The notes below the pieces were generated by a model that was given only the letters and a program-made list of their open reading frames with translations, made no database searches and had not been told where the DNA came from. A program made the position numbers and the translations under genes. From assembly GCA_004022145.1 (NCBI GenBank), contig RCNU01000010.1: DNA of 64,000 nt. One strand, written 5' to 3'. Below are positions 271-32,931 of this stretch, in pieces (position 1 is the stretch's first letter; every line of letters starts with the position of its first letter). The stretch comes from Paecilomyces variotii. Its lineage: Eukaryota.

Positions 271-621
271 CGGAACGCTGTCCGCTTGTGCCAACAAGCG
301 ACTACTTACGCTAAGTAACGTCCTAGCACAATGATCAATTCTGTACGTCAAAAGAAACCACCATAGATAGCCTGAAAATATGGTAGATCTAACACAGGCG
401 GGTCTGTCCAACCTCCACGGTTAGTTTGCGTGGGTATACTCGGATTCCCTACCGGTGATGAATCAAGCTGCGCCAGTGTTGTTCTGCGGGGTCGAGGCGG
501 CGAGGTTACCGTGATTATGGCGAAGAGTGCAATAGATTCGGAACGAGTAGTTATGGGTACAAGCCAATACGATGCGATAGCAATCTATGAGCCGATAGAT
601 CAGCCTACGGGTTGAAGTCCG
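271..621. promoter_or_regulatory. Four CGG-N8-CCG inverted motifs upstream of P5C dehydrogenase (putative Zn2Cys6 binding sites), plus a CreA-type GCGGGG
   Basis: CGG-N8-CCG at 271-284, 441-454, 498-511 and 608-621. SYGGRG at 486-491. Confidence 0.7.
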
Positions 622-730
622 GCAAATCTGGCCACATCATAAGTAGAGCTTCGAATGTTGACTCCCCTTGAATCGTTTAGCAGTCAGTTGTATACCTGTT
701 CTCGGCGTAACACTGACAACTCATCGAAGT

Positions 731-2651
731 ATGGCACTTATGCAGTCCGTGACTTGTTTGCGTTCGAAGTCTCGACGACTGATTCGAGACGGCATAGCTT
801 CATTGCCTTCAGGATCAATTGTGCCGTTACGACACGTTGCTACAGTGCCGTTCCGGTTACCAGCTCCCAGGAATGAACCCAATGTAAGTCTCGGACTGGC
901 AGATCAGAAGAAATTCAGCTAACTGTTTTTAGCTCCAATACAAAAAAGGATCCCCTGAACGACTCCGTCTCGAAGAAGCTTTGAAAAAGCTCCGCTCACA
1001 GCTGCCTCTCGAGAGTCAAATCTTCTACAATGGCAAGGCACAGAAGGCACCAAAGTCCGTTGGACAGCCGATGCCCAGCGAGCATGGCACGACGTTTACC
1101 AACTTCCCACTTGCCACCAAGGAACAAATTTCGGTTTCAATTGACTCTGCCCTCAAAGCAAAGAAGGACTGGGAGAACACACCTTTCGTTGACCGAGCGG
1201 CCATATTCCAGAAAGCAGCTGAACTCGTCGCGACTAAATACCGCTATGAACTTATTGCAGCAACAATGCTGGGCCAGGGGAAGAACATCTGGCAAGCAGA
1301 GATCGATGCTGCAGCGGAGTTGGCGGATTTCTTCCGCTTAAATTGCAATTACGCTGCGGAGCTTCTAGGAAGGCAGCCTGATCGTGGGAGCGATGGGATG
1401 TGGAGGTTAGCCAGCTATCCCTAAGTTAACGTGAGGCATCCCGATCGCGCTGACCTTGAATAGCCGTCTAGACTATCGTCCATTGGAGGGATTTGTGTAC
1501 GCCATCTCTCCGTTCAACTTCACTGCCATCGGTGGAAACCTGATTTCAGGCCCAGCTTTGATGGGAAATGTGGTGATTTGGAAGCCGTCTCCATCCAACA
1601 TTTATGCGAGCACTCTGATTTACAAGATCCTTGTCGAAGCCGGTCTGCCACCAGATGTTATCCAGCTAGTGCCTGGCGATGCTGAAGAGATCACTGACAT
1701 TGTTCTTTCCCACCGTGAGTTTGCGGGTTTGAACTTCACTGGCTCATCGCATGTATTCCGGTCCATCTATGGAAAGGTCAGCAAAGGCGTTTCCGACGGC
1801 TTGTACCGTGACTATCCCCGTCTTGTGGGAGAGACCAGCGGCAAGAACTTTCACCTCGTTCATCCATCGGCAGACATTTCAAGTGCTGTTAACCATACCA
1901 TCCGTGGAGCATTCGAGTACCAGGGCCAGAAGTGCTCGGCAACTTCTCGTCTCTACCTTCCAGAATCCCGTGCTCAGGAGTTCCTCTCACAACTCACAGC
2001 TGGGGTGAACAAGATCACAGTCGGAAGTCCAGATAAAGACCTTGGTGCATTCGTGGGGCCTGTCATCCATCGCCAGTCATTCGAAAAGATAAAGTCCATC
2101 ATCGATGCCAGTAACAAGGATCCGTCGCTGGAGCTTGTTGCTGGAGGAACCTACGATGACTCTGTCGGTTACTATGTTAATCCAACTGTGTACCGAGCTT
2201 CTACGCCAGACCATGAACTCTTTCATAAGGAGATATTCGGCCCGGTCCTAGCTGTATACGTCTATCCAGATGCTGAATGGTCCTCCATCTTGAAGAAGGT
2301 TGACCAAACTGGAGGCGGGTTCGCCTTGACCGGAGCTGTATTTGCTACTGAGCGCACGGCAATTCGAGAAGCAGAAGATACCCTCCGGTACTCTGCAGGA
2401 AATTTCTACATCAGTAAGTCATCCATTGAGTTATTCTATTTGAATGGCTTGTCGAACGCATATGCTAATTATCAATAGACTGCAAAACCACAGCGGCTTT
2501 GATTGGCCAACAATCTTTCGGTGGCAGCCGAGCCAGTGGCACAAACGACAAAGCAGGCAGCTCCAATGTTCTGCTGCGATTTACGAGTCCAAGGCTCATC
2601 AAGGAAGAGTTCTTCCCTCAGAGCACTTTCTTTTACCCTAGTAACGAATAA
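731..2651 (+). CDS. prnC: Delta-1-pyrroline-5-carboxylate dehydrogenase (ALDH4; PrnC/Put2-like), mitochondrial, 4 exons
   Basis: ATG at 731 gives an Arg/Ser-rich presequence then FRLPAPRNEPN. Introns are 884-932, 1406-1463 and 2414-2478 (all GT..AG). Motifs: AISPFNFTAIG, FTGS, ETSGKN (catalytic Glu), EYQGQKCSA (catalytic Cys), EIFGP, FGGSRASGTNDKAG. Stop TAA at 2649-2651. This may be a paralog of the housekeeping gene. Confidence 0.95.
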
Positions 2652-2958
2652 GTTGTATTGGTAAAGATGAAAGGTATGAAATCAAGACGACGGTGATTGG
2701 AGGGTAGCGTAAATGGATTATTCGCAGAGCTAGCTAATTGATTTCAATTATTGCCATAGACCTCGTACATCAGAAGACCACTACATAGTCTTTCGAAATT
2801 TAGAGGAAAACTGTGCAGCGCAATCAATATGAAGTGTATAAATACACATTCAAGAGGCTAGGCGTCATCACATACGGTAGAGGCCTTCATTTTCCATATA
2901 GCAACCTTCTAAGAAGTGTCGTGAGATCCAATTTTCTTAGTTACATTGATATGGAATT

Positions 2959-5494
2959 CTACCATATGTTATTTTGCGCCAGAGCTTGAGACACCCATTC
3001 CGCGTCTCCACTCTCAATCGAGTTGGCCACGGCCAGTATCTGTGCTGTCGTAAACCCTTCGTTGAAAGCATACTGTTCCTGGTTTTCTGAGCTGAAGTTA
3101 TTTTCTGTAAATTGCATTGGGTGTTCTTGTGCAAGCGCGGGACCTGGTTGGTTAACAGCACCGCTATCTCGAGAAACGGCAACATTGGTAGCCGGTATAG
3201 GCCAGGACGATGATAAACGATCCAATACGCCCTCCACTTGTTGTAGCTCAGACTTTCTGAACTTCGCAATCAAATTTCCGCTTGATATCATGTCATCGAT
3301 GATGGAGTGTGACTTTTGAAGCCATGGTGACCGGGTCTCGAGAAGCCGAGTATCAATCACGGGCGCAAGCAAAAGCACCATTGCTGATACGAATACAGAC
3401 TCAAGATCGAAGTAGAGGAATGTCTCTGAGCGAGAATGTGACGTAAGTATAGATATACATAAATATATAGTTTGAAAACTACACCTTACCTAGAAGACCC
3501 TGTGTTTGGAGGTTTCCGAGGATATTGATCATTTGAATGGAAGAGTCGATGCACATCTGCAGCACATTCCGAACTGTCGGAGAAGAGCTTAGAGAATCGG
3601 CAAGAGTCTCTGGAGAGGATATTCGTATCTTAAGGAATGAGAACAACAGCGGTCTTGTGGCAAGGACAATGCACTGAACGCAGGGTTAGTAAGCATCAAG
3701 GAATGGATATGCCATACGCAGACCTGGTGGTAAAGAAGATGTATATACGCTGCCAGCCTGGATATACCGCTAGCGGAGTTTTCCAGTGGAATAGGTAACA
3801 TTCGTCGCATCTCATCGGCTAGACCTGCTACGCTTGCGAGTGCTGACTTGGTGCTGAGCAAAAAGCTCGTGTTGAGTCGTCCGTCAGGACCATAGATAGC
3901 TTATTAGATTAGCCAGTGGATAAGTAGAAGGCCAGTTATTTTACATACTCTCGTTTATCCCTGCTATCACCCGAGACAACTTTATTTGCATATTTAGAGC
4001 CGCCGTCCGCTGTGCTGAGACCATAGACGTTGGTGCTTGGTTATGCAGATGATCGTCGCGTATCGATTGCGGTAGGCCGAATAAGGATGTCATTTCTCTG
4101 TCCAGTATGTATACCGTCCACCAGATCTTTCGACACCTCTGCACTAGACGCTCTCCCAAGTATTGAACTGGCATATCTGTATGCATTCCATATCCTAACG
4201 CCATACGCATTGCTTGCCCGATCTAAAGGTATGAGATGCGTCATTATTTCGTTTCTGAAATGCAATCCAGGTAACTTACATATTGGTGGGACGAATGCCT
4301 AAAGTCCAAGGACTGAAGGTATAAAGCGATGCAGCAAAGGATTTCCGTTGATATAACTGGTTCCTTGCAGAGAACGCTTACGTCTGGCAGAAGTTGAAGA
4401 GCGAGGACAAAGAATTCGGCACCAGGAGGTTTTCTGCCGTCGTTCTTCCGCAACACAAATGCTTTTCCAAACGCGAGAATGACGAGAAAGTGGATATACC
4501 AGAGGTTCGTTTTAGATGTTCGACTGTTAGAGTCCGAATAAAAATCGTAAAGTGACCTCATAAACTCCTCTTCATCGAAAAGGTGGAACAGTTGACCGCA
4601 ATGGAATTTGACAGAGTTGATTAAGTAAATAGCGTGATCAGTAGTTGGAATAGCAGGTTCCTCGGGAATGGAAGTGCGGAATCCATCCCATCCTAAATCG
4701 TAAGCAGAACCGTCAAACAATAGTGTCTCTGTCGGGAGGGGTTCTTGGTAAATGTGCTCATAAACCATGGCTAAAACTCGTCTCGCAAATGACCAGTTTG
4801 ACGAAGTTCCAAGATAAACTGGATTTCTGTTAGCTTTTTGCGTTCCATTACTGCAGGAGAAGCATGTTCACTGACAGGCCCTTCCGTTTGCTGCTGACAT
4901 GTAGGCTGACGGTCCTGTAGAAAGTGGATTTGTTAAACCTGAGGGGATATTTTCCATTTCCTTTTCTGACGGAGCATCTCGGTCCTCGATTTGCGCTTGT
5001 TCCTCGTCCTGGATTGAACCTGCCTCCATATCTGCTGACAAAGGTCAGTAGATATCTCAAGGGATGTTAGAAAGCGAACAATAAGTATCTCAGCCGCCTA
5101 CCATCTTCCAGAATTGTGTCTTGTTCTGGGTCTGTAACGTCCGGACTGGACGGAGTATGGCCTTTGCTCATTCGTCTCAAAGACACAATCTGTCGCTGGA
5201 GATCGATAATGTATCTAGACCACGCACTTAGCAAGTTTCCACTCTCGAATTCTTTCTCCCGTATTACCCTCTGGTCACCATCATTTTCTGATCCCGGTCA
5301 TCGAAGATGCATGGCAGGTTTCGCTTGCTGCACCCACTGCACGGTTGCGATCCCGAACACTTGATCTTTTGCCTTCGACATCGTGTGCACCTGAACAGGC
5401 ATTTTAGCAAGAGTTCCCATTCCTATCGCGGCGGGTTTACATGCGCATTAGAAGATCTTTTTCCTACTCTGCGTTTTTCCTTCCCAGATTCCAT
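2959..5494 (-). CDS. Zn(II)2Cys6 transcription factor with fungal TF middle-homology domain (Put3/PrnA-like), multi-exon
   Basis: The spliced N-terminus reads MESGKEKRRVGKRSSNA-CTRCRRQKIKCSGSQPCSGCSKRNLPC (CX2CX6CX5CX2CX6C). Later segments: YLGTSSNWSFARRVL, FHCGQLFHLFD, PPGAEFF, ALRMALGYGMH, RCRKIWWTVYILDR. The C-terminus FTTAQILAVANSIE...NNIW* ends at 2959. Internal exon boundaries are approximate. Confidence 0.88.
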
Positions 5495-5875
5495 TTGTCT
5501 GAACAGTCTCTTCAATGTCTGGATAGCATGAGCGATGAGTGTTCCTCTCACTTGGTCACTGCGGCGTGTACAGGCTACTCCTAAGTACCATCGCTACCTA
5601 CCTAATCTTTCCATCGGTTCGAGGGGAAACCCGGGGCCATTATCCTTGTCTAGCCCATTATGGTAATCAAATCGCAGCGCGTTAAGCTTTAATAATGCAC
5701 TTATGGAATATATACCATAGTCAAATGCGGGGTAGCAGTTCTCAGAATTGAATTGGTCCTGTGGGATGGAGACCGATGATTAAGTGAATCGACTCGAAGA
5801 ACGCCGCCGAGAAATGCCAGAATTCCCGTCTTTTGCCGCTCCAGTTTAGTTAGGTACTTACACCCGATAAGAGAC

Positions 5876-5889
5876 CGGATGCTCTTCCG
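5876..5889. promoter_or_regulatory. CGG-N8-CCG motif in the promoter of the cluster TF
   Basis: CGGATGCTCTTCCG lies about 380 bp upstream of the TF ATG. A CreA-type GCGGGG is at 5727-5732. Confidence 0.55.
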
Positions 5890-6148
5890 ACCATTTGAGA
5901 TAATTATATACGAGCTAGCGACAACTAACTACCTAACTACCTACTTGTTAGTTCTCGCATATCAATAGATAGAAGAATGATAGCGAGAACAACCAATAGT
6001 AATGCTATGCATATCTCAAGAACCTATGATATGACCAGGATCAGATCGATAACTGTCTCGCTTCCTATCTACTATCTATCCCACACATGGGACTAGAACA
6101 GATCCTATCTGTGCCTCCGTCTTACCTACTACTTACTAACTATTTTAA

Positions 6149-7763
6149 TTATACAGAATTGGAGTTATCGGCGCAGGACCAGGCAGCGGATCCTCCCGAT
6201 TCTCTGTAAGTATCAATAATGTTGACAATAGACCCATAAGTACCACCAACCATCAAGAACGTTCCAGAGAGTACAACGAAAACACTCCAGCAAACCATCA
6301 AAGCCCATTTGCGGTCAGTGGCCAGCTTTCCGCGGCTCCAGTTATCGTATAGCCACATGCAGCCCATCGGCTGAAATGCCATGAGTGTACCCAGTAGAGC
6401 ACCCACTAGTGAGACAAGACTCCCAAAGACAGGGATCGCACTGGCAATGATATAGGCAGTTACCGCGATACCAAATGTACAGCCCAACCAAGTTGTCCAG
6501 TGTACTACCGTATTGGCGACAAGATGCCTGGATCCTTGCAATATGCGAACAAAGATATACTTGGCTGGCAACTGCAGAAAACAATTAGCAAATCTTCCTG
6601 GGTAGCATCCACTGGAGTGCTTAGTTACATGAATTACAAGCGTGGTTGTGACGATTAGACCGGGTAGAGCAAAACCGTAGGCAACCTTCTTTACCATAAC
6701 ACCAGCGGAGCCAAGGGCGGGCGAAGCAACATAAGACCCGCAATAATAGTAGACAACACAGCCAATTGTGATATATATGGCCGTTACACCACCCTGGCAT
6801 AGTAGTAGTGATCGAGTATATTTGCGAGGGTCGCGCATTTCAGATACGATGGCGAAGAATGCCGGTGTTCCCGCGTACGCGAAGACGATAGAGGACACAG
6901 CAGACATGGCATCGCTGAAGCTAGGGTTGTTGACAATTTTATAGTCTGATTTCCAGGGACCACTCTGTGGCGCAGCGCTGGGACGATCTTGTATACCAAC
7001 AGCAATGGTCACAATGAGGACTGTGAAGCATGTTAGATCATAGCTGGAGACTTATAATGGATCAACCCACTAGCAGTAAGGATACAGGTGACGCCAACCC
7101 ACGCAAGCCAACTGATGCGGCCGAGCGTACGAATACTACCCAGGACGAAGCTTACGGCAGTGGCAATGGCAACGAAGACAGCTGTACATGTACCATGGGT
7201 AGAAACAGCATTGAGCCCGATCGATATACCTAGGATACCAGATCCAGCTACGAAGGTCCAATCTGTATGGTCAGAAAATAGTCTCTTTCGTTGCAGGAAT
7301 GACCTACAAAGACAGAACGAGAATCCAAGCATCACACGGCCAATGTGACCAAACATTAATCCACCGGCATCGTCGATACTGTAGACTGTGGGATGGAGAA
7401 GCTTGAAAACTCCGATCATGTAGTCCGACCACGTCGTGATAACCGCAACAACTAACAAGATGATGACCCCTGGAACGAGGCCCAATATGTCAAAGGCACT
7501 TGGAATTGAGAGGACACCGAGGCCAATCTGGGTCTTGAGCATCAGAACGGTTGTTCCGAGCCATCCAACCTGCAAGGTCATCAATTCGTGCACGAAAATG
7601 GATCTTGGAAAGAGCATACGTTACGATAGTTGGGGCCGTCGTCGGTGATATCCCCAAAAACAGCATCGTGAGTATAACTCGTGCCATTGTGAATTTCTCC
7701 GATCTGTGAGGGAACTGTAGCTAACTCCTCGGGGCCAACTTTAGCCTTGGACATGTCAGACAT
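6149..7763 (-). CDS. Amino-acid permease, Aa_trans/AAAP family (Mtr-like neutral amino acid transporter), about 5 exons
   Basis: ATG at 7763 (MSDMSKAK). Motifs: HDAVFGDITDDGPNYRNVGWLGT, MLKTQIGLGVLSIP, FAYAGTPAFF.IVSEMRDP, GSYVASPALGSAG, C-terminal WSCADNSNSV*. Many hydrophobic TM segments. Confidence 0.92.
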
Positions 7764-8009
7764 TGTGCAGAAGATGTTATGAATAACCATCAATCCGGGC
7801 AATGGTTGTGTGGGGAGATCGAGTCTTTAAATTCAACTGAGGCACCCAACTTTCTCTAATAAAGAGGCCTGTCTGCCATTGTTGGGTTTCATAATCCCCG
7901 AAGGCCTGAAGGGTGACGCCACCAATCTGTGTTATCGCTAATCTGATACTGTTACTAGAACCACTTTATCGGTTATGTTCTCTCCTCTCCTAGCTCAGGA
8001 TTAGATACC

Positions 8010-8423
8010 CGGAGGCCTTGCCGACAACGGAGGCAACGATCAAGCTTCCACGAGCAATTCCTCGGGAAGACGCCGCCATTAGACCGGAACCTCAGGCGAC
8101 GTGTCACTTGTTAATGTTCTGTTGCTTCCCCGGATTCTTCGAATCTAGTTTGGGCATATGATCTTGGGAAGTACTGGATTGAACAGGCCGTAATGTCCAA
8201 TTCAAAGTTATCACCGACGGAGACTGTTGGCCAGTCGTAATATAACTACATGTAACTCTATATGCCATGCAAGTAGTAGTAGCTTTAGGAGAGCGCATAA
8301 AGTCACGATGCGAAATCCTGTAACATCCCTACCAGTGAAGCAATACTCCATACTTCACATCCTTAATAAGATTACTGTTGATTTATTATTCTGAAGTTAT
8401 CAGTCCTTTCGGGAGGCCTTCCG
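8010..8423. promoter_or_regulatory. Two CGG-N8-CCG motifs upstream of the permease
   Basis: CGGAGGCCTTGCCG at 8010-8023 and CGGGAGGCCTTCCG at 8410-8423 share an AGGCCTT core. CreA-type sites are at 8587-8592, 8772-8777 and 8785-8790. Confidence 0.65.
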
Positions 8424-9943
8424 GAGTCTAACGATGTGAAATAACGTCAGATGCATCTGCATAAGTCCAACATTATTAAACTGCGAAGGATTCTTCATAG
8501 CTATAATCAGTTAATATGCGGCATTGTTGTCACTTGCTAGGGATGGATAACCCGGATCTATCAATTCGCACTTTGGACATACCTATGCGGGGTACCTAGT
8601 CTTTGTGTTACACATGAGACACCTCGGATATTTCATTCTGCAGATGGCCATAGATGCTTGTATAACTATACCACTGCCACGGATATTGCCGACCTGCAGA
8701 AACATTGTTGGATATGTGCACTGATCGGAACAATTGACTTCTGATCAAGCCCCAGATTTATTCTGTTGGGTCTGGGGTTGCAATGCGGGGGAACGGGCAT
8801 GTCAATCACTGCTTCTTACGGCAAGCGGAGGGATAAGCTAATGATGGCACTGTTGAGAGACTGGCTGAGGAGTGGGACATTTCGCCATGGGCACAGAGAA
8901 GCTGAGCAGGACCTCTTGCTCTGTCTGAAGCTCATTTCAGTGGGGGTGAAGTTACAGCTACCTGTCGCGATACAGGATACATTCTGAGGATATCGCGCAT
9001 CCGTGTGTACCTGAGACAATGGAGTCGAAGCCCACCAATTATAAGGTGGAGGTTGCGCGGTTGCAGTCTTCGCTCATTGATAGCGACCGTGAACAGCAAT
9101 TAACAAGGAGCCTTCTTTTCAAGCTTAACATGAGGTATGCATGGGAACTTATACAACGGCTGCCCAAAATGCAAGAGTTACATAGTATTTATATTCGCAA
9201 AACCGTTACTCAACAACGCCTAGTAGCAGTCAAGGTTGACATCTATTAAGTCTTCGCTTGGCCTGTGAATGGACGAGTAACTAATGTCTGGTTAAAGGTT
9301 GCTCAAACGAGTCTTCTGAAGTTGTTAACATTTCGGACTATTTGCTCCCCATTAGCTTACCAGGGTACACAACACTGTATGTACAGAGCTATCCAGACGA
9401 AATATGAAACAACGACTGTTCCGTTCTCGATCGAATGTGTGGGCTCTCTTCTATTGGTATGGCTGTCTCGGTTGTATTCCGTATCTAGTCGATTCTTGGA
9501 CGAAGGATATAGAAGACGGATACGGTGACAGGCTTCTGCTAACACTTGGCACCGCAGTGGTTCTCTTGAAGTACATGCATTAACGTACCTCATACTCTGC
9601 CGCAGTCTCTGCTATGTTTGATTTTGGCATTTTCGGGTGTTTTCTTTGACCAAGAGGATATTCTGTCCTCGTTAAGATAGTCTCATTAATTTGTGCCTTC
9701 TGACGAAGTAAACGGGATAAACTGAACAGAGGTTGTTTGAACGGGGTTTAAATGTACCCTATTATATACCCTCAAGAAGCTTCTAGAGAAATATTCTACT
9801 TCAACTGCAAGAATGGATCAACATGATAATTTATTGTCCAATGCCATATCGAAGAGCTTTCGCTTTCGTATGCTGCTGAATCTTCATATTGAGTGGTTCC
9901 CCTTTCTTTTCTTTTTTTTATATATTAGTTGTTTCCATCTGAA

Positions 9944-11089
9944 CTAAAAGTCCTGGACAGAAAGCCCCTTGCCTCGCCGACTGGCGAGTGATAATATCGC
10001 TGTACCCGCTGCGAGATCAGTCATACTCACGCCGACGCTCTTGTATATAACAAATCCCTTTCCTAACCAGTTTTCCAATTGCTCATTATCCGAACGATCG
10101 TCCTTCAAGTTTATGACCTCGCCGACTTCTACCAGCTGCTCCGGTTTAAGTTGACTTTGAATTAACTCGCCGGAGCTCGTTCGTGCAACTTCACGATCAT
10201 CCACTATCACAGCTCCACCGGCACCGCCTCTTGGGTTATACGCGGAGTTTGATGTGACGGCATCCCGTAACAGTTCAGGATCCAACTCAATCATGCTAGG
10301 CTGCCAGGAACCGATGCTCGATACATAACAACCACCTGTTTCAGAGAGTTGTCTCCGAAGAAAACGAGCGGGAAACAAAGGAACTTTCGACGGTGTCGTA
10401 CAGAAAACAACATGAGCAGTAGCAAGCACGTCTTCTAACTGCCTCTGGAACTCGGCGTCTGTAATATCGAGAGAATCCAGCTGAACAGAAGACTTCCAAC
10501 GTGACTGATTCTCTTCTCTTATCTGAGAAACCAACGATCGAGACCTCTCAGCAGATCGATTCACGATAGTAATCTGTTTGATCTCGTCTCCTCTGAGTGC
10601 CAAGGCAAGGCGAATATGCCATAAGGCTTGCTTCCCGGCCCCAAAGACTACAATTTTAGCAGTCCTTTCTCGCCATGAGAATGGGATCATAACAGAAAGC
10701 GACGTGCGGTGAGCTGTGATCTCGTCGGCGTTGATGATTCCCCTGGGCAGGCCGTCCTTGTTGCACAGAATCAAGAGCCCGTGCAGAGTAGGTTTATTGG
10801 CATTGGTAGTGTTCTCCTGCAAAGAATCGGTTTGTTCTCTCGACGTACTTGGATCAACGATGATCTTCGTTCCCACATATTCTGGCGAGGTGAAGGCTCT
10901 GAATAGAGTCTTGACGCCGTTTGAACGGGCCACAACGGCTGGTTCTGGCTGAAAGCTTCGTTCGTCAGAGGTGGAAAAGCTCAGCAGAGACGTGGCGAGA
11001 GTATTGAGGAATTCACAAATCTCATCTTTTGAGAGGCTGATTAAGATTTCTTGCACGATTTTATCGCCTAGGACGGTGCAGTTTTCCAT
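9944..11089 (-). CDS. Ornithine cyclodeaminase/mu-crystallin family NAD(P)-binding protein (PrnX-like; candidate Delta1-pyrroline-2-carboxylate reductase), intronless
   Basis: First ATG at 11089 (MENCTVLG). Motifs: INADEITAHRTS, Rossmann VVFGAGKQALWH, FCTTPS..PLF, IGSWQP.MIELDP, IYKSVGVSMTDLA. Confidence 0.88.
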   Translation of the reverse strand: MENCTVLGDKIVQEILISLSKDEICEFLNTLATSLLSFSTSDERSFQPEPAVVARSNGVKTLFRAFTSPEYVGTKIIVDPSTSREQTDSLQENTTNANKPTLHGLLILCNKDGLPRGIINADEITAHRTSLSVMIPFSWRERTAKIVVFGAGKQALWHIRLALALRGDEIKQITIVNRSAERSRSLVSQIREENQSRWKSSVQLDSLDITDAEFQRQLEDVLATAHVVFCTTPSKVPLFPARFLRRQLSETGGCYVSSIGSWQPSMIELDPELLRDAVTSNSAYNPRGGAGGAVIVDDREVARTSSGELIQSQLKPEQLVEVGEVINLKDDRSDNEQLENWLGKGFVIYKSVGVSMTDLAAGTAILSLASRRGKGLSVQDF

Positions 11090-11298
11090 AGTTTGGTTCA
11101 AATGAGATATGGTATTGTCAGAGTCTGTAGGATTCAAGTGATATCAGGTAGAGTTAATTGCTCGAGTATTGCAAATCATAGCACGGCTACAACGCTGATT
11201 TATGCTTCAACAGCGCTGCTCATATCACTCCGGATTCAGAGGGTTTCTTTGGCTCTTTCAAAACGGAGTTGATCAGATACGGCTCTCTTTGCCGAAAT

Positions 11299-11570
11299 CG
11301 GCGGCGTTTCCGACTTTCATTTAATCGACACACGTCCCAACTGAGACAGCCAACAGAAGTCATTAATATGATCGTATCTTATAATATCTACTTAGCAAGG
11401 AGGGGGAAGTCTCTATGTGGACTGGTTGGTTGTCATCGTCCGAGTCCATACTCGGAGTGGTAGGCGCAGAAGATCTACCGCAGGGTATATAGGGACAGCG
11501 AATTCAAAATCTATAAACATTTAATATCCATGGACGACATTACCTGTCAACTTTATCGGGAATGTTACCG
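11299..11570. promoter_or_regulatory. Two CGG-N8-CCG motifs in the divergent OCD-like/racemase promoter
   Basis: CGGCGGCGTTTCCG at 11299-11312 and CGGGAATGTTACCG at 11557-11570. A CreA-type CCCCGC is at 11652-11657. Confidence 0.65.
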
Positions 11571-11862
11571 TTACTGAATGGATACTTATCGTATTTGCGC
11601 GGAAGTTGTACCTATATCGGTATCTCTCCCCATATACGCATAGATACGGTGCCCCGCAAGGCAACATAAAAGAAAATAGGAAACGCGCAAAGCGACATTT
11701 CATCTTTCTAGTTACTTATCATCATCATCATCATTATTATTATTATTATTTTTCGTCCTTGCATGTTCAAAGATAATAAATTCCATATACTTCTCAACGG
11801 CAACAGCAACAGTCCGTTTGATCCCTCAGACATCAAACCGGCCCGGTTGATATCTCAGCGGA

Positions 11863-12909
11863 ATGGGTATCAGTCGAACAATTAGCATAGTTGGCTGCCA
11901 CTGCGCGGGCGAAGTTGGCGATGTCATCGTTGGAGGTGTTCTCGACCCCCCTGGATGTTCAACGATGTATGAAAAACTGGTCTACTTCCGAGACAAAGCT
12001 GATGATATTCGTCAACTTCTCCTGAATGAGCCCCGAGGCCGGCCGGCCATGTGCACGAACCTCGTCCTCCCGCCATGCAATCCCAAAGCAGATGCCGGGT
12101 TTCTTATCATGGAGAGTGAAGAATACCCACCAATGTCGGGTGGTAATACTATTTGCACAGCCACTGTGCTGCTGGAAACGGGGATGGTGCCAATGAAAGA
12201 GCCGATTACCAGGATGCTACTAGATACGGCTGCAGGTCCTGTAGGCATCACTGCCGAATGTGAGAATGGGAAGTGCAGGGCCGTTGCTTTTGACAACGTA
12301 CCTGCGTTCGTATTCGCTCTAGATTATAAGGTCCGAGTACCTGGTCTTGGAATGATTTCTGTGGATATTGCCTGGGGCGGCATGATTTATGTAGTTGTCG
12401 ACGCAGCGTCCGTTGGTCTTCGTATCAACAACAGAAATGGTCCGAAACTTATTGACATCGGCGAGAGGATCAAACAAGCTGTACAAAACGCATACACTCC
12501 TGTTCATCCGGAAAACCCGGGGATTCAAGGAGTCTCTATTCTCGAGTTTACGGAACCTCTGCGGCAGGAACCATCAGGAGAAAAAGTAGCTGTTAACACA
12601 GTTGTGGTAGCTCCTGGAAGGTTTGATCGTTGCCCATGTGGCACTGGGAGCTGTGCTAGAATGGCGATTTTACATGCAAGGGGACAGCTGGAAGTTGGAG
12701 AAAAGTTTCAGCATCGCAGCATCATTGGGAGCAGCTTCGAGTGTCATATACGAGGTACGACGAAGGTTGGAGAATATGATGCAATCCTCCCAAGTGTGAA
12801 AGGAAGTGCTTGGGTCACAGGGTATAAGCAGATGTTCTTGGATTCTACGGATCCTTTTCCTCTTGGATTCAGGGTGGGAGATCAATGGCATATGTCAGAT
12901 GCTGCTTGA
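11863..12909 (+). CDS. Proline racemase superfamily enzyme (Ser/Cys catalytic pair; candidate hydroxyproline epimerase/dehydratase), intronless
   Basis: 348 aa ORF. Motifs: GCHCAGEVGDVIVGG, LLNEPRG, YPPMSGGNTIC (Ser92 at the first catalytic position), VDIAWGG, DRCPCGTG (Cys259), DPFPLGF. Confidence 0.93.
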   Translation: MGISRTISIVGCHCAGEVGDVIVGGVLDPPGCSTMYEKLVYFRDKADDIRQLLLNEPRGRPAMCTNLVLPPCNPKADAGFLIMESEEYPPMSGGNTICTATVLLETGMVPMKEPITRMLLDTAAGPVGITAECENGKCRAVAFDNVPAFVFALDYKVRVPGLGMISVDIAWGGMIYVVVDAASVGLRINNRNGPKLIDIGERIKQAVQNAYTPVHPENPGIQGVSILEFTEPLRQEPSGEKVAVNTVVVAPGRFDRCPCGTGSCARMAILHARGQLEVGEKFQHRSIIGSSFECHIRGTTKVGEYDAILPSVKGSAWVTGYKQMFLDSTDPFPLGFRVGDQWHMSDAA

Positions 12910-19469: not shown

Positions 19470-20793
19470 GTCGATGGAGAAGAGCATAGTCGTGACGTCT
19501 ACAGAGTGAAGTGTTTTGGAGCTTCATTTGATTTCTATTTGCATTCTAACTTTTCTTATCATGGAATATCCTGGAATATCCTGGGCGTTGAGTTACTGGA
19601 ACAAAAGGTCAACTGCATTGGGCGTCTGGATAATGAGCCTCTCCGAATTTGAGTGAGCATCTGTTTATTTTTTACCCTCTATTTTTGCCCTTGATTTACG
19701 CCCTCTTGATGGAGCCGGCTATTGTCATTATTTTGTATAGAGGAAACCCAAAAAAGATTGGGGACCACGCAGCTACCATGTAGAGTTTCACAACCATGGC
19801 GGCAGTGCATCCATGCATTGTAGTATCAATCACGTTAGAATTCATTCGATGATAAATTGAATCCGTGTTGATTGTAAAGTCTATGTCCACTTGTCGTACT
19901 CCTGCGATATGCCGTTCGCAAGTCCTTGATCGCACCAGGGTTGGCTGCAAGTAAGCTATCATACGCCAACCAACATCCCGCTAATTATTCCTCAAATGCC
20001 CAACCTACGCAAAAGCACACAAGGCAACTTCCGTTTCTCTGTTTTGTTTTTGGCCCTCACATTCTCTAATAATACATCAAAGCTTCGTTCATCCGCGGAA
20101 ACCTCTTCTAAGCTTCCCCACTCCCCGAGTCCCGGAACCCGATCCGACCTGGCTAATCCCATCGCGGTCTAGTCTTGATCTTGCCCCGGACTGGACTGGT
20201 ACCCCGAGGCACGTGGCTGCAGCCAACTCGTAACTTACCGAATCATCCCGTCACGCTCGTGTATCAAAAATACCATACACCCAGCCATGATGTCATGACG
20301 AAGGCTGTAACCACGCTAGACTGAAAACGGGACAGCGCCATCAGTGACCACTGACCGCCCGTCGAGTGAGAACGTGCAAGAGCCGCAATCTGTTTGGAAC
20401 GACGGCGGCAGATATCTCCTTGTTCTGGCAGTTCGCTCTTCTGGTTGCCCTCACGCAGGATATTCGGGTCTGGCTCATTGTTGGGGGGCTGAGTTGCGAT
20501 TCTAATTGATTTTCCGTCGTGTCATGTTGAGATTAGCGTGACGTGATTCAAGCTGGTATCGGGAAGCTCCATCACGCATTGAAACGAGATCGACCACGGG
20601 CAACTCCACGCAGTCGTATCGATAGAGGATCGAATTCAAGAACAATACATCGATTCTACACACTGGAAAGTTGGTGGCTTGCCAGGTACGGGCAGAGCTG
20701 ATCTGCTATTTGGCGCAGACTTTCTGTTCTCTCGTCACACCGCACCGCCACGATCGTGACACCTACGAATATTCCTAGCAAGCAGATTACGCA

Positions 20794-22990
20794 ATGCCTC
20801 CAGCAAAAGGCCCGGGTTCAGGAAGGAGAAATCCAAGTGTGCTGGTGAGTGTCTTCTATCTGTGGGCATTGCTCCAGTCAAATGTGTAGGGGGCTTGCAT
20901 TTGGGAGTTGGAGCTAATATCTGCCAGGTCACCGATTCTCGCGAGCAACAACAGCCAGCACGCCGCAGCCCAGCCTCAACACGTTTCATAACCGTCGATA
21001 ATGTCCTACAGTATGCGTCTGATGTGCCCTCGATGCAGCAGCGGCACCCTCCGCAGGGCGTGCGACAGCGTCCGCGCTCCCGCCTGGCATCGGGCGGTGG
21101 TCTGATTGGCAGCGGGGGCGGCGGCGGAATGGGTTCGAGCAACGCGACAGGGACAATGGGAAGATTGGCTGCTCAGCCCAGACTGCCACCACGGACGACA
21201 AAGGTCAGCGAGAAATTGGTGTTGCTTCCGGAAACAGACCAAGTAACGCAGGAAGAAGAGGAAGAAGAACAGGCGGACGAGGAGGCGGTTCGCAAATTGG
21301 CGGAGGAGCGGAATCTGGACCCTGAGATTGTTAGAAGGCAATTGGCTTTGGGGAGACAACAGGGCGACTTCGATGTCGATAATGAAATTGCGCCATTGCT
21401 TGCGGACGAGGAGTTAAAGCGCCGTCGCCGCGTTCCTCCTGAGAAGGCAAAGAGCTACGCGGAACGGCTGCCAAAGGCCCGTCGGGCTGAAAAGCTGGCT
21501 CGGGTTACGGCATACTGCACGGCACAGGCTTACAAGATGAGCACAACGGCTGCTTTCCTGAAGGAATGGCATGGTGCAAGGACAAAGCTGTACGATGACT
21601 GTCTCTATGTCGCTTATCAACTGCCGCTGCTGCCCGGCCGCGGGGGCTACAGGATTAAGAGCAGCGCTGCCCTTAAGACTGCTGGCGGCAAAGCAGTTCT
21701 CGATGAGGAAATTGAAAGAAATGAGCGGAGAGATTATCATGAGGAATACTTCACGGAAGAAGCGGAGCACTCTGTTGGTGGGGGTCGTCTCGATCAGGGT
21801 TCAAGAGACAGCCATGAGAGCACAGAAAGCAACCGTGAACATGGCGAGGCTCATTTAGCAGGGACGGATGGCAGCAATATACACGATCAAGAGTCCCGAT
21901 CAACGCCACAAGCTCCCGCTAGGATCTCGCCCAGTGTGCTCGCCGTCGCAGAGATGTTCGTTTTCAGCTACGGAGTGGTCGTCTTCTGGAATTTCACAGA
22001 GAGTCAGGAGAAAGATGTTCTTGCCGACTTGGCTTTCTCTCACTCGACGACCGGGGACCCTCTCTTTCTGGCCACCGTGCCGCTGCAGGAGGAAGATTTC
22101 GAGACTGAAGAGTTCCATTTCGAGTACTCTACCGAGATATCTCGGCCGCGCGTATATAACGACATGATCACTCTGCGGAGCGGTGACCATATGATCAAAT
22201 TGGCAATCAGTCATGGAATTGCCCAGAGCACCAAGCTCTGTTTCTTCGAGGAGGTCATGGCCAGACAGATGAGCGAAGCTAAAGACGTGCCCAGGAGACT
22301 AGCGACGACAGGAAAGCTGGGTATGAAACGAGAAGAAGTCTTCCGGATATTAGGTCGGCTGTTCAAGAGCCGTGTTGAAGTCAATCTATGTGAGTTCTTG
22401 CCCATTTTATCTTCCCCCGATTCATTCCCAACTAACCGCAACCTCTTCCCCAATCAGCTTCGAATATGCTTGACGTGCCAAACTTCTTCTGGGAGAGCGA
22501 GCCGACCCTCTACCCGCTGTACATCGCCGTCCGGGAATACCTCGAGATCAAACCGCGCATCCAAGTCCTGAATGAGCGCTGTCGTGTGTTCCTCGATCTT
22601 GCCGAGATACTGTCCGATTCAATTGCAGATAACAAAGAATCACGTAAGTTTTTATCAATCTCAAACCCAACCACCTTTGCAATCAATCCTACACGAGGAA
22701 ACGAAAAAATAAACACCCCAATTATATTTCTTTCTTTCCCTTTCTTTTCCTAACAATCCACAGACCAAACCTGGATCATCATCGTCCTCATCATCATCTC
22801 CATCTTCGTCACCATCTCCGAAGTCGTCCTCCGCTTTGGCCTCCTTCACGCCCGATCCGGCCCCGCCTCCGCATCCCCCTCACTTTTCTCCACCGTCTTC
22901 GGGTCACGATGCACGTGTCCTACAAATCTCAACTCGACCGCGGCCATTGGCTCGTCTTTCCCACAGGGCATGTTGGAATATACTACCTAG
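20794..22990 (+). CDS. RMD1/RMD8 (Sif2/Sif3, DUF155) family protein, 4 exons
   Basis: ATG at 20794. Introns are 20845-20927, 22390-22458 and 22644-22764. Motifs: RVTAYCTAQAY, EMFVFSYGVVVFWNF, KLAISHGIAQSTKL, LDVPNFFWESEP.LYPLY..VREYLEI.PRI.VLNER, C-terminal TM WIIIVLIIISI. Stop TAG at 22988-22990. Confidence 0.9.
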
Positions 22991-28109: not shown

Positions 28110-31100
28110 TCGAGCCTCGTGTCGATCTGCTGCGACGTGGAGGGAGGGCAGCCAGAGCCATACGCACCAAATGAACCACTTATTAGGGGTCTAGAGTGTA
28201 TTATTTGTTTGAGACCAGCCCGAATGGGGTCAAGGTTGGCGCCGGTTGGCGGCACAGGGCATCCTCCAAGAGAAGCCAACCCCATTCAGATCATTTAACT
28301 ATTCGCCATCTATCTATGTATTAAATGATATCTGTAAACCTGTTGTCCTATGAGTGTGTTCACTTGCCTATCCGCGTTTGTTCTTTCTCCGGTGATGGTG
28401 ATAAGGGTCAACTACGGCTGGCATCCGCCGTCATGCTGCCGTCACTCCTCGAAATCCGGATGAAGATCGAATACCAAGAGGTCGTCCATGACCAGAATCT
28501 GTTCTCTCGAACAACAGGGACGGCCTACCCCAGTGCGCTTCCACGACAGGATCGGCCGTCTCCTAGCAAGGATAATGATGGCATACTCGAAACACCGCTG
28601 TCGAGTTCCCCTCTGCATGTTCTCCCGGGGAGTTATAGCAGATGTGGATGCGTGGGCCGCAGCCTCCCCTGGGCCCAGGCGTGCATTGGGATGCTTTTTG
28701 GATCATCTCGTGTCCGTCGGGGATTCCCCTGCGACGGCGGCTCTTCACTAACTCCAAAAGTGTGATAGACCGTCGCGTCTCCCCGTGGCCAAGCCTCGCG
28801 CGGCCCCCTTGGCGAGTTTCCAGAAGAATTTTCGAACCGAGATGGAAGCCTTCGAAAGCATCCACCGCCGGGGCCTGGAAGTAGCGCCAGCTGCATCTGA
28901 CATGACGGTGCCGTCGACCGGGCGGTCCCTGGACAGGCCATCCTTGCACCATCGAGGCATCCTACTGAAACACGATCTCTTTATAGCATGAACGTAGCGG
29001 TAAAGGGGCTCTCTCGCTCTTCCCCTCTCTCTTAGCGTACGGCTTACCGTCGATTGGTTTTGGTCCTGTGGCAGAACAGCAATCCACATTCGATCGTGAT
29101 ATTTATCCCGCAGCCTTGGAGCAGCATGGAGCCCCGTCAGAAGATGTTGACCTTGGAGAGCTCCAAGCACAGACAAACACTGCATCCAATTCATGACGCT
29201 GTTCCGTAAACTTAATTCCTTCATGCTGCAATAATGTTCGGACCGCAAGGTCGTCGTCCCCACCGGTCAGGCCCTATCACTCGACGATATCGGATATACA
29301 GTCAATGAGTCGCGGGCCTTGCTCCATATCTCCTGGCACCATCCGATCTAGCTGGACTGATCGTCTCGGCCCTATGTCAACTATCATTGTTCGGGCGTGG
29401 ATCGTGATCGTACGGTCTTACCCCTGTCACCTGGGCACTGACAGCCGTTGGAATGACCACGGCTAGCATAGACTAGCTGTTGCTGGGGGTAAAACATATT
29501 GCGTACGCCAAAGAGGCTGGTGAGAACCATTTTACTGTGCAGTGTGAGGCTCACTTCCCTCCACCGCTGCATAAAGAGTTTCTATTCTATTCAAGTTCCA
29601 GACTTTTGTTTGTTGGTTTTTTGAGGGGCTCCATTGCCGCACGATTGCAGTTTATGAAACATCCAGAAGCATGCAAAAGAGAAGATGAATCGAAGATCTA
29701 CGGAGTACAGTCAGGGCAGTGCAGGCATCAACAATAGCACGGCCACTTGCACTGACTCGGGAAGGCATTTGGGGGGATTGATGACCCTTTTTTCTCGGGG
29801 GGGCGGCTGGGAAAGCCGTGGAGAATATCCACTGCGCCGGATCGACTCTTCTGATCCTGCACGATACTCTAGACTCGACTCTTTGTTGCTAAATTGCCAA
29901 AACGGAACATCACCAAAAATGTGGACTTCGTGGTTCGGTCTACCGTTAAACTAGGGCATCGGCAATTCTGGAAAAGTAACTTACGTGGACCCCGGGATGC
30001 AATAGTAGTGAAAATGGAGGCCATGAATATCAGCCACAAACAGACTGCCTACTCGACTCTAGCACCCGGATCGGTTCCTCTACCGTCCAAGGACAGATGA
30101 CATCAGAAGGTTGATGTCATACAAATAACTCCCTATTTGTCTTCGGTACTGATTCTTGCAACTGGCCATCCTCCTGCGCCCTTCCTTGCGGATACACTGA
30201 ACTCTTCAGGGACTCTCTGAGCGTCTCATACTGGAGTACGCGGCCGGATACAGTCGCTGCTGCTTCTCGACATCACCGCGCGAGTCCTCTTGGAGATCCA
30301 CCAAGTCTGGTTAAGGCGACGTCTATAAGCCTGGGACCCCTGTTCGGACCTCCAGCCGTCCTTATCAACATCATCCACCCGGCCCCGGGGGATTCGGTGT
30401 AGGGGGCAGCTGAAGTCCTGAGCTCTACTGGTTCAAAGGACCAGAGGATAATCTCTCCGCGAGCGCTAAACAAGGTCCAAGGGCCTCCTTTCAACCTTGT
30501 TCTCTTCTTTTCGCAGGACGGTTAAATTACTGCTCGAGCCGGCGTCGTTCCAGAATTTTCTGGAAGGCTTCCTATTGTTGACCGTCGAAGCTTCAGAAGC
30601 GGGTAACCCCTGTCTCATCAATGATGACACGGTCCTCCGGTGGGCCTGCTCGTCCGTCGTCTTCCTGTTCCACTGCTAAGTGTGCTATACGGCTCAACGG
30701 ACGGTGGTGGATCCCCGTTACGAGCGACGGAGATGAAGGACGGCGAGTATCGTCACCGCCCACCTCAATTCTCCGTGTTGATGGCAGCATAGTTATGTCG
30801 AACAGCGAACGTCAGGCTCGTAAAGCACGGAAGAGCCCCTCAATTTCCCTAGATGACTCGGTTAAACCTCCGTTCAAGAGGCCAGGCTCGAGTCGGCTCA
30901 ATCACTCAGAAGCAAACGATCTACGCGCCTGGGCTTCTCCATCCCATGTTGACTTGATGCACACGGACGGGACCGTAAATCAAAGATCCACTAAGAAAAT
31001 GGGCACGGAATCACGCCAAAAGTGCTTCTAGAAGGCCGCTAGAAACAAAAGGGGGTCCAGTGAACAACCGGTGAGAGAGGATGCAAGCGGCATTGCGGCA

Positions 31101-32931
31101 TAACCCTGGAAGGAACCCGAAAGCGCAGTTGTAGGACTGCTGTGGCTTGGTCCTCTTTCTCGGGTACTCCTCATCCCCCAAGACGAGGAATGTAAGTGGT
31201 AATACCTACGGAGATGCGGTGTAGATACCGATCGCCTTTGCGCAGGCATCATGCAGCTTCGAAGCAAATCAGAAATCCATGTGCGCGTCAGGGGCACAGC
31301 CAAGGTCCTCGAGCGGCTTACTGAGCCAGAATCGACGTCCCCGGTGAGTTTCTTGAGGAGACCGGGCAAGAAACATCCTGATATCGTCTATCTAGATTCT
31401 AGAGATACATAACTCTTGGTGGTGTCCTCAGGCCCAGGCGCATAGCTGGGGATGATTGCATCTTCTATGGCATGTTCTCTATCATCAACTATCTAAATAT
31501 ACATAGTGGGGGAGGGTCAATCAGACGGTCAGACCTCGTTATCGCCGTGCGGACAATAATGCGATCCGATTGTCATCTGTATCTCAACGCGCAGTACCAC
31601 AGATCTACTTTTCTTTTTCCCCCATCTGCTCGCGAGCACCGATATCTTCCAGACCCCTTCCATATTGCCAAGTATCATAGCGCCTATGCCCCTGCCACCC
31701 GATCATCGAGCCCTAATACTTTTTTTCTCCGATGATCAAGTATCATTATTTACCTCAATTTTTCCCAAGCTCATTGCAGAACAAAGAAAACTGAGAAGAA
31801 ACGCCCGAGGCCAGCCACCACGTGCGCCACGCATCTAAGAATGCCACGCGGCGCATGTAGGGGGAAGAAAAAAAGAGAAGAAGGGAGCTGCATAATGCTA
31901 AACCCCGACTCTGCATAATGACCATGTGTTAACTAGTTCTTTTGTCCCCTTAGCCGCATCATCGATCATGCAGAGTACTCGCATAGAATCCTAATATAGA
32001 CAGCGATCTTGTTTCAACCTGTTATGATTTGCTTTTTGTTTTGTTCATTCAACATTTTCCCATACTTGGGATCTTTACCATGCAGGAGTCGAACATTCGT
32101 TTGCATTGTTATTTTTCGTTTCTCTAACTATGCTAGGTTGATCTTCAGCTTAACATCTAGACATCAACTGAGCTAATAATATTTCCCATCTCTCATCTAA
32201 AAATTCAGCCCTTCTTTGTCCGTAAGGGATCGCCATCGCGCTAACTTCTTCTCTTTACATTTATTTATTTATACTTCATCTCTAATACCCCTTCTTATAA
32301 TAGACTAGAAAGTATACCCCGTATTCGTGGAGGATAAACCTATGTATAAATATAGTAAAGACCGGGGTTTTTCTCTTTTCATTGTTGTTTCCTCGGGTCC
32401 GGAAAACTTTCTTTCTTTCTTTCTTTCTTACTAATTAATGTAGTAGCTATTTCTGGAAAGTTGTGCTTTAGTTATAGTAGTTTTTTTGAACGGGGCGTTT
32501 CTTATAAGCTTTTTCTGCGGTTCGGTCCAGGAGGAAGGAGTAGTGGTGGGTTTCTGTTCTAAGGGTTGTTGGTTTGTCCAGTAGTGGTGTGGTATATTCA
32601 TTGTTTCGCTGGCTGGTTGAGAAGAGGGAGTGGCAAGCATTGTAACTTGAAACTTAAACTGGATAGAGTTGTTTTATTATTGTTTCTGGTTATTCAAGAA
32701 TTGGAATCTATATATTTGGTTCGGGAAGAAGTATTTACCGCTGCTTACTACAAAGATCATACCTTCCTTTCTGTCATCGTTTTCTATTGATTTATATATA
32801 TATATTTTTCCAGATTATTTTCTCCGTGTCACTTTTGTTTCTTTCTATTGGCTTCAGGTCCCATCTCTTCTAGGAAAAAAAGAATACACATACACATACA
32901 CATACAGAATTGGTGGTATATTGATATCACA

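Follow-up and report, generated by a model that had tools for sequence, protein, structure and literature searches.

A CGG-N8-CCG inverted repeat as the probable operator of a Zn2Cys6 regulator and its proline/hydroxyproline-type gene cluster in Paecilomyces variotii

Fungal genes for the use of a given nutrient are often grouped around the gene of their own regulator. Here we describe a short DNA element that recurs in the promoters of such a group in Paecilomyces variotii, in a stretch of 64,000 nucleotides taken from contig RCNU01000010.1 of assembly GCA_004022145.1, and hereafter called the window. The group comprises genes for a dehydrogenase of Delta-1-pyrroline-5-carboxylate (P5CDH), an amino-acid permease, an ornithine cyclodeaminase (OCD)-like protein, a proline-racemase-like protein and a Zn2Cys6 transcription factor (TF). 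The element, the inverted repeat CGG-N8-CCG (extended form T-CGG-[A/G]-A-G-N5-CCG-A), is quite probably the operator of this TF, which would join the cluster into one regulon and control its own gene. An earlier note on the window had proposed that the motif is the binding site of the cluster TF; the proposal now gains support from the enrichment of the motif next to TF orthologues and their putative target genes. One regulon plus autoregulation, also put forward there, is the best reading of motif occurrence upstream of the TF and in the neighbouring catabolic promoters.

A pattern search recovered exact matches at all nine positions that the earlier note had listed for the cluster promoters (Table 1), and every promoter of the cluster indeed carries the motif: the four promoter regions (1-730, 5495-6151, 7765-8744 and 11090-11870; 3,148 bp in total) hold 4, 1, 2 and 2 copies, respectively. 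Each of the remaining 20 spacings between 0 and 20 occurs 0-2 times in these regions, 11 times altogether, against 9 for N8. From the triplets present (52 CGG and 39 CCG), 0.62 N8 copies would be expected (Poisson P = 2e-8). Moreover, of 32,349 trinucleotide dyads (spacers 0-20) scanned without a prior hypothesis, CGG-N8-CCG comes first (9 observed, 0.65 expected, p = 3e-8, or about 1e-3 after Bonferroni correction). The excess of CGG-N8-CCG in the cluster promoters is far beyond chance.

The same spacing stands out when longer stretches are counted. The first 13 kb of the window contain 10 N8 copies against 0-4 for the other spacings of the inverted repeat, the tenth copy being probably incidental, inside the coding sequence of the TF. 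The whole window contains 29, where each other spacing from 0 to 20 occurs 5-18 times and shuffled sequences give a mean of 11.7 (sd 3.4, maximum 23), none of 100 shuffles reaching 29. Everted and direct arrangements of the triplets give no N8 peak in the window (21 and 10 copies, against 8-25 and 6-17 for other spacings); enrichment at N8 is absent for everted repeats and at most marginal for direct ones.

The spacing is conserved upstream of orthologues of the TF. Metagenome contigs were scanned with an alignment of 20 orthologues, and 68 loci were chosen by TF homology alone; removal of 16 near-duplicates left 52 non-redundant loci covering 488 kb. These contain 233 N8 copies against 44-114 for the other spacings, while the everted CCG-N8-CGG (70 copies) is not enriched. 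For the region directly in front of the TF, we kept loci with at least 300 bp of upstream sequence and a match starting in the first 30 residues, that is, 55 of the 68, of which 40 are non-redundant (37.5 kb). In these regions, which reach at most 1 kb in front of the gene, N8 is the sole enriched spacing (65 copies against 3-20) and is present in 35 of the 40 loci. To remove relatedness, upstream regions that could be aligned by blastn were grouped, which gave 21 mutually unalignable groups with one representative each (19.3 kb); N8 still occurs 32 times against 1-8, with a site in 17 of the 21 groups. When the same 21 regions were scanned for dyads, CGG-N8-CCG came out on top among 43,624 (32 observed against 3.84 expected, p = 5e-19), and the next-ranked dyads are flank variants of it, such as CGG-N9-CGA, which equals CGG-N8-CCGA.

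The consensus of the 65 TF-upstream sites reads (A)T-CGG-[A/G]-A-G-N-N-C-[A/T]-N-CCG-A, of which the extended element given above is the short form. A position weight matrix (PWM) built only from the TF-upstream sites of other species gives the nine cluster sites a mean of 1.04 bits, against -2.46 bits for the other 20 N8 sites of the window (Mann-Whitney p = 0.018). Two footprints were found among the alignable upstream regions. In ten regions of the Cladosporium type (mean column identity 0.53), a site lies about 200 bp before the ATG in all ten, its triplets invariant and its spacer variable. The second footprint, CGGAAGCGCATCCG, is kept in 5 of 5 loci, is identical in L009 and L030, and, by conservation, comes first among the 841 14-column windows of its alignment. 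The site of the window at 5876, which reads CGGAAGAGCATCCG on the strand of the TF, agrees with this footprint at 13 of 14 bases and appears to be the counterpart of the TF-promoter site conserved in the five related loci.

Furthermore, the motif accompanies catabolic genes in other fungi. The open reading frames (ORFs) of 31 loci and of the first 14 kb of the window were clustered and annotated with Pfam and NCBIfam. A recurrent cluster emerged, with the order P5CDH(-), sometimes DHDPS(+) and AA_permease(+), then TF(+), a DAO-family, MSOX-like oxidase(-), Pro_dh(+) and a P5CR-like gene(+), in L003, L009, L011, L021, L026 and L028 and, partially, in L030 and L034; N8 sites fall in its intergenic promoters. 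Upstream of P5CDH, where 18 loci were usable, all 13 non-redundant loci carry N8 (24 sites), against 1-9 sites for the other spacings except N7. At least one N8 site lies between DAO and Pro_dh in 8 of 8 loci with the arrangement TF(+)-DAO(-)-Pro_dh(+). In both other loci with a racemase-like gene, two N8 sites occupy its promoter; the divergent partner is an OCD-like gene in L054, as it is in the window, and the TF in L044. Database gene models from various genera that mis-fuse the TF with Pro_dh, P5CR, DAO, aminotransferase, DHDPS or Pro_racemase domains point the same way. The content of the cluster, together with the aminotransferase and DHDPS fusions, resembles the mammalian 4-hydroxyproline route. 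As a separate observation, CGG-N7-CCG is raised upstream of P5CDH (16 copies; loci L001-L053) and not upstream of the TF genes.

The TF itself has as its best database match a Zn(II)2Cys6 factor of Paecilomyces variotii (P0001), with 97% identity over the middle exon. Six cysteines (C18, C21, C28, C34, C37 and C44) are invariant in the 20 orthologues and are likewise encoded in the window, with the spacing CX2CX6CX5CX2CX6C; PF00172 is annotated in the orthologues, and PF04082, the Fungal_trans middle homology region, in P0001 and most orthologues. The orthogroup spans four classes of Pezizomycotina, and its member in Aspergillus nidulans FGSC A4 is AN6030.2 (P0221). Compared with solved structures, the N-terminus of the TF matches Ppr1, Put3, Lac9, Gal4 and Leu3, the closest DNA-binding domains being those of Ppr1 (1pyi, E = 2.8e-6) and then Put3 (1zme and 1ajy, E = 5.6e-6). 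The alignment is gapless with Put3 and has one gap with Ppr1, covering the zinc cluster and the linker and extending into the coiled coil (YIIDLQRQI); a linker and a coiled-coil dimerisation element are thus predicted right after the zinc cluster. Put3 and Ppr1 are homodimers on inverted CGG repeats, and since the TF aligns with Put3 through the linker into the coiled coil, it would belong to the class that binds such repeats as a homodimer.

Prediction of the spacing from linker length was tried and rejected: Put3 (N10) and Ppr1 (N6) align with equal linker length, so that the N8 spacing is not readable from the DNA-binding domain. Among the loci, an L022-type group was considered as a possible paralogue; it is the Cladosporium orthologue, its Eurotiales matches being the same proteins. 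In the window, the first intron of the TF gene (5391-5444, minus strand, 54 nt), directly before the first zinc-cluster cysteine, is apparently of the GC-AG type, as the GC start is needed to yield the conserved N-terminus of the orthologues (...SSNA/CTRC...).

Binding and dimer formation, like the inducer and the sign of regulation, are matters of inference. In the model that we propose, the TF would dimerise via the coiled coil that lies beyond a 14-residue linker, each zinc cluster reading one CGG half-site. The centres of the half-sites lie 11 bp from each other, close to one turn of the helix, which would place both modules on one face of the DNA; the linker, for its part, probably reads the A/G-A-G bases on the inner side. 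With 1-4 sites per promoter, the P5CDH, permease, OCD-like, racemase-like and TF genes would form a co-regulated proline/hydroxyproline catabolic regulon, in which the TF gene would be under positive autoregulation and the inducer would presumably be proline, a hydroxyproline or an intermediate.

Several points weigh against the TF as reader of all these sites. The support consists of sequence statistics throughout. Five of the 40 loci are without N8 upstream of the TF (L002, L017, L068, L058 and L067); the upstream sequence available is 541 bp in L002, 643 bp in L017 and 344 bp in L068, and L067 and L068 are weak matches to the zinc cluster only. Sites 498 and 608 score badly on the PWM (-5.4 and -6.3 bits), and the main allele of four metagenome runs lacks the stretch around site 8410 (8262-9840). 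Where the window outside the cluster and the 'far' flanks of the TF loci serve as background, N8 is also about twofold in excess off the cluster, with 19 copies between 13 and 64 kb of the window against 5-16 for other spacings (mean 9.75), and 27 in the far zones against a mean of 14.4; these copies could be further targets or sites of other N8-reading factors. Because ClrB and other regulators also read N8, and because of this off-cluster excess, the bare motif does not identify the TF. Comparison with a strain of the metagenomes, which covered differences up to position 2740, shows 9 substitutions and 1 insertion in 1-730 and none in the 56 bases of the four P5CDH-promoter sites; with about 0.8 change expected in those bases, it has no power.

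Three other explanations were weighed. The N8 sites could be real and yet bound by another N8-preferring Zn2Cys6 protein, ClrB-like or an amino-acid regulator, with the TF gene merely one target. The documented use of N8 by other factors, the excess outside the cluster and a DNA-binding domain that does not predict spacing all speak for such a binder. However, the loci were picked by TF homology alone, and the motif peaks directly upstream of the TF and in the adjacent catabolic promoters; the pattern holds across four Pezizomycotina classes, fungi usually have such a TF within the cluster that it controls, and the extended consensus is common to TF and target promoters. We regard another binder as improbable. 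Far less credible still, to the point of being negligible, is that base composition or chance in CpG-rich promoters produced the excess. Compared with their AT-biased surroundings, the promoters do contain more CGG and CCG, but their triplet counts predict well under one copy per spacing, the non-N8 spacings give 0-2 copies each, everted N8 is not enriched and direct N8 marginally at most, and the signal is replicated in 21 independent lineages; the dyad scans and spacing counts refute this explanation.

A third possibility, which we take seriously while holding it to be rather doubtful, is that only part of the nine sites works: 5876, 8410, 11299 and 441, and perhaps 11557, 8010 and 271, would be bound, and 498 and 608 would be chance or low-affinity copies. 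In its favour, PWM scores span 6.2 to -6.3 bits, and with about 0.6 sites expected by chance in the promoters one chance site is plausible. On the other hand, the four P5CDH sites within 350 bp resemble the two or three sites found upstream of P5CDH in other loci, and Gal4-class factors tolerate variable spacers. Were only a subset bound, the statement that every promoter carries an operator would stand and the number of nine would be overstated.

In kind, the proposed system is nothing unusual, a Zn2Cys6 factor dedicated to one pathway and acting at a palindromic CGG operator. It shares with the Gal4/Ppr1/UaY class the succession of zinc cluster, linker and coiled coil, and a CGG-Nx-CCG palindrome of factor-specific fixed spacing. 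Known fixed spacings of inverted CGG repeats are N11 for Gal4, N10 for Put3 and N6 for Ppr1; unlike Gal4 and Ppr1, the spacing here is N8. Put3 of Saccharomyces cerevisiae (structures 1ZME and 1AJY), which specifically activates proline catabolism (Pro_dh and P5CDH genes), resembles the TF both in its Zn2Cys6 DNA-binding domain, aligned without gaps, and in its link with a proline-type pathway. In contrast to the N10 of Put3, N10 is absent from the window promoters, and upstream of the TF orthologues it occurs 8 times, compared with 65 copies of N8.

The earlier note had taken N8 for a distinct specificity of the cluster TF, which can no longer be maintained, since CGGN8CCG sites have been documented for other factors too, among them A. 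nidulans ClrB. The relevant passages of one report, which cite work on A. nidulans mndB, describe CGGN8CCG as the ClrB site at mndB, where loss of either triplet abolished binding, give the same form for predicted ClrB or CLR-2 sites, and mention that ClrB also acts via McmA at CeRE-like sites (PMC13267753). Excerpts of two further papers give CGGN8CCG for Botrytis BcSpd1 (PMC9280406) and in the discussion of a GliZ site (PMC4006717). Compared by operator and regulon, ClrB/CLR-2 (A. nidulans, A. niger, Myceliophthora), a Zn2Cys6 activator of cellulases and mannanases, has the same operator core as found here. Its regulon comprises plant cell-wall enzymes, whereas here the sites front genes for P5CDH, Pro_dh, DAO, P5CR-like, DHDPS, permeases, OCD-like and racemase-like proteins.

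Identity of the TF with PrnA was ruled out: its A. nidulans orthologue is AN6030.2, while prnA is AN1729, so the comparison with PrnA in the earlier note concerned a different protein. Cluster names include no PrnA label. As described in sections of PMC5983819, PrnA (AN1729) is a Zn2Cys6 regulator clustered with prnD (Pro_dh), prnC (P5CDH) and prnB (permease), and binds CCGG-N-CCGG and CCGG-6/7N-CCGG. Unlike the prn cluster, the cluster described here has another gene order and contains DAO, DHDPS, P5CR-like, OCD-like and racemase-like genes. The PrnA motifs CCGG-N-CCGG, CCGG-6N-CCGG and CCGG-7N-CCGG are not enriched, with 0, 0 and 0 copies in the 37.5 kb upstream of the TFs and 2, 1 and 5 in the 488 kb. 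One CCGG-N-CCGG is found in the cluster promoters of the window, and the N8 half-sites take the CCGG form in only 34 of 130 cases.

A broader and more tentative proposal can be made, on which we lean slightly to the sceptical side. The AN6030 orthogroup may be the master regulator of a second, PrnA-separate proline-type regulon across Pezizomycotina, a fungal hydroxyproline regulon whose genes would all be wired via CGG-N8-CCG, with positive autoregulation. Pro_dh, P5CDH and a DHDPS/HOGA-like aldolase would form the core, joined in some species by an aminotransferase, and would together correspond to the mammalian-type 4-hydroxyproline route; permeases would be extras, as would an MSOX-like oxidase and a P5CR-like reductase. 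Some lineages, including the Paecilomyces-like genome, would have added a module in which an OCD-like reductase accompanies a Ser/Cys epimerase or dehydratase.

The name AN6030 was not found in the main texts of the literature searched (supplements lay outside the search, and TF-deletion screens or expression tables could name AN6030). Neither was the hyphenated form 'CGG-N8-CCG' found in the portions of text that the literature search covered; among written variants, these contain only 'CGG-N8-CGG', for A. niger cexA. A fungal hydroxyproline regulator was not found among titles and the beginnings of abstracts, nor was literature linking hydroxyproline catabolism, Zn2Cys6 factors, a gene cluster and Aspergillus. 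The AN6030 orthogroup, its N8 operator and the conserved proline/hydroxyproline-type cluster thus appear not to have been described previously. As the N8 spacing is already known from ClrB and other factors, the novelty lies in its assignment to the AN6030-type regulator and regulon.

Through this assignment, a widespread uncharacterised Zn2Cys6 orthogroup would gain a cis-element and a set of targets, as well as an autoregulatory loop, and the AN6030-type regulator would be set apart from the classical proline regulator PrnA. The nine sites, the extended consensus and the DNA-binding domain offer a directly testable handle on how filamentous fungi exploit collagen or plant cell-wall proteins as sources of hydroxyproline and proline. 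Moreover, a second, unrelated regulon in the N8 class would call for caution before every CGGN8CCG is called a ClrB site.

The coordinates of the genes and sites are collected in Table 1.

Table 1 Genes, CGG-N8-CCG sites and other features of the cluster region. Distances are relative to the ATG of the gene named; PWM scores are in bits.
Feature	Position	Strand	Description	PWM
P5CDH (Delta-1-pyrroline-5-carboxylate / glutamate semialdehyde dehydrogenase) gene	731..2478	+	With introns; Pfam Aldedh	
Zn2Cys6 TF gene	2960..5494	-	Zinc cluster, linker, coiled coil, Fungal_trans; ATG about 5494	
Aa_trans amino-acid permease gene	6152..7790	-	Pfam PF01490 on two exons; ATG about 7760-7790	
OCD/mu-crystallin family gene	9947..11089	-	Pfam, NCBIfam	
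Proline-racemase-superfamily gene	11863..12909	+	Divergent from OCD-like gene	
CGG-N8-CCG site 1	271..284		P5CDH promoter, about -460	0.04
CGG-N8-CCG site 2	441..454		P5CDH promoter, about -290	3.15
CGG-N8-CCG site 3	498..511		P5CDH promoter, about -233; weak match to extended consensus	-5.43
CGG-N8-CCG site 4	608..621		P5CDH promoter, about -123; weak match to extended consensus	-6.27
CGG-N8-CCG, TF's own promoter	5876..5889		About -382 from TF ATG, 3' of permease gene; top score in window	6.17
CGG-N8-CCG, permease promoter	8010..8023		About -250	0.91
CGG-N8-CCG, about 650 bp upstream of permease	8410..8423		Within indel-polymorphic stretch	4.94
CGG-N8-CCG, divergent OCD-like/racemase-like promoter	11299..11312			4.36
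CGG-N8-CCG, divergent OCD-like/racemase-like promoter	11557..11570			1.45
Tenth CGG-N8-CCG	5342..5355		Inside TF zinc-cluster coding sequence; probably incidental	
Stretch without recognisable gene	8262..9840		1,579 bp, flanked by 7-bp repeat ATGCCAT	

Pfam and NCBIfam bear out the gene assignments of the earlier note, that is, P5CDH, TF, permease and the divergent OCD-like/racemase-like pair. The P5CDH gene, with its ATG at about 731, matches NCBIfam TIGR01236 (group-1 P5C dehydrogenase) with 468 bits on one exon. For the OCD-like gene, the closest models are Delta1-pyrroline-2-carboxylate reductases, every one of them scoring below its cut-off. The racemase-like protein likewise falls below the cut-off of every NCBIfam equivalog, and its alignment places Ser and Cys at the two catalytic positions; its closest solved structures have Ser/Thr there, among them 4k7g, whose deposited name is 3-hydroxyproline dehydratase. 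Parts of a study of this superfamily (eLife 2014, PMC4113996) describe a 4-hydroxyproline 2-epimerase with a Ser-Cys dyad, and Ser-Thr in another cluster of the superfamily. The gene is thus a candidate for a 4-hydroxyproline 2-epimerase or a 3-hydroxyproline dehydratase, and hydroxyproline is a plausible substrate given the dyad of the former and the Ser/Thr relative 4k7g of the latter.

In front of the same gene lies the sole CCGG-N-CCGG of the 64 kb, a PrnA-type palindrome at 11838-11846, inside AACCGGCCCGGTT. It is placed 17-25 bp before the racemase-like ATG, and could be a site of cross-regulation or a chance occurrence.

Upstream of the permease gene, position 8261 is joined to 9841, with the repeat ATGCCAT shared at the joint, in contigs that four metagenome runs yield from a strain about 1.5% divergent; a lower-depth contig in run X2 retains 8262-9840. 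As four runs skip the stretch and one lower-depth contig carries it, it is a presence/absence polymorphism between strains, by which the permease upstream region loses site 8410. It has no protein similarity to neighbour families and no repeat elsewhere in the window.

Two further places in the window deserve mention. Four N8 sites (30072, 30345, 30859 and 31217) are packed in 1.15 kb at 30072-31230, with low to neutral PWM scores (0.3, -0.6, -1.5 and -6.4), and chance, an unannotated target or a different N8-reading factor may lie behind them; in the surrounding 3.6 kb (29.3-32.9 kb), the single ORF scanned (30582-31028) has no Pfam match. Finally, an N8 site at 20133-20146, of the form CGGAAC...ATCCGA (PWM 0.93), resembles the conserved, putatively autoregulatory site of the Cladosporium type and sits about 600 bp upstream of an ORF of the DUF155/RMND1 family (20760-22568).

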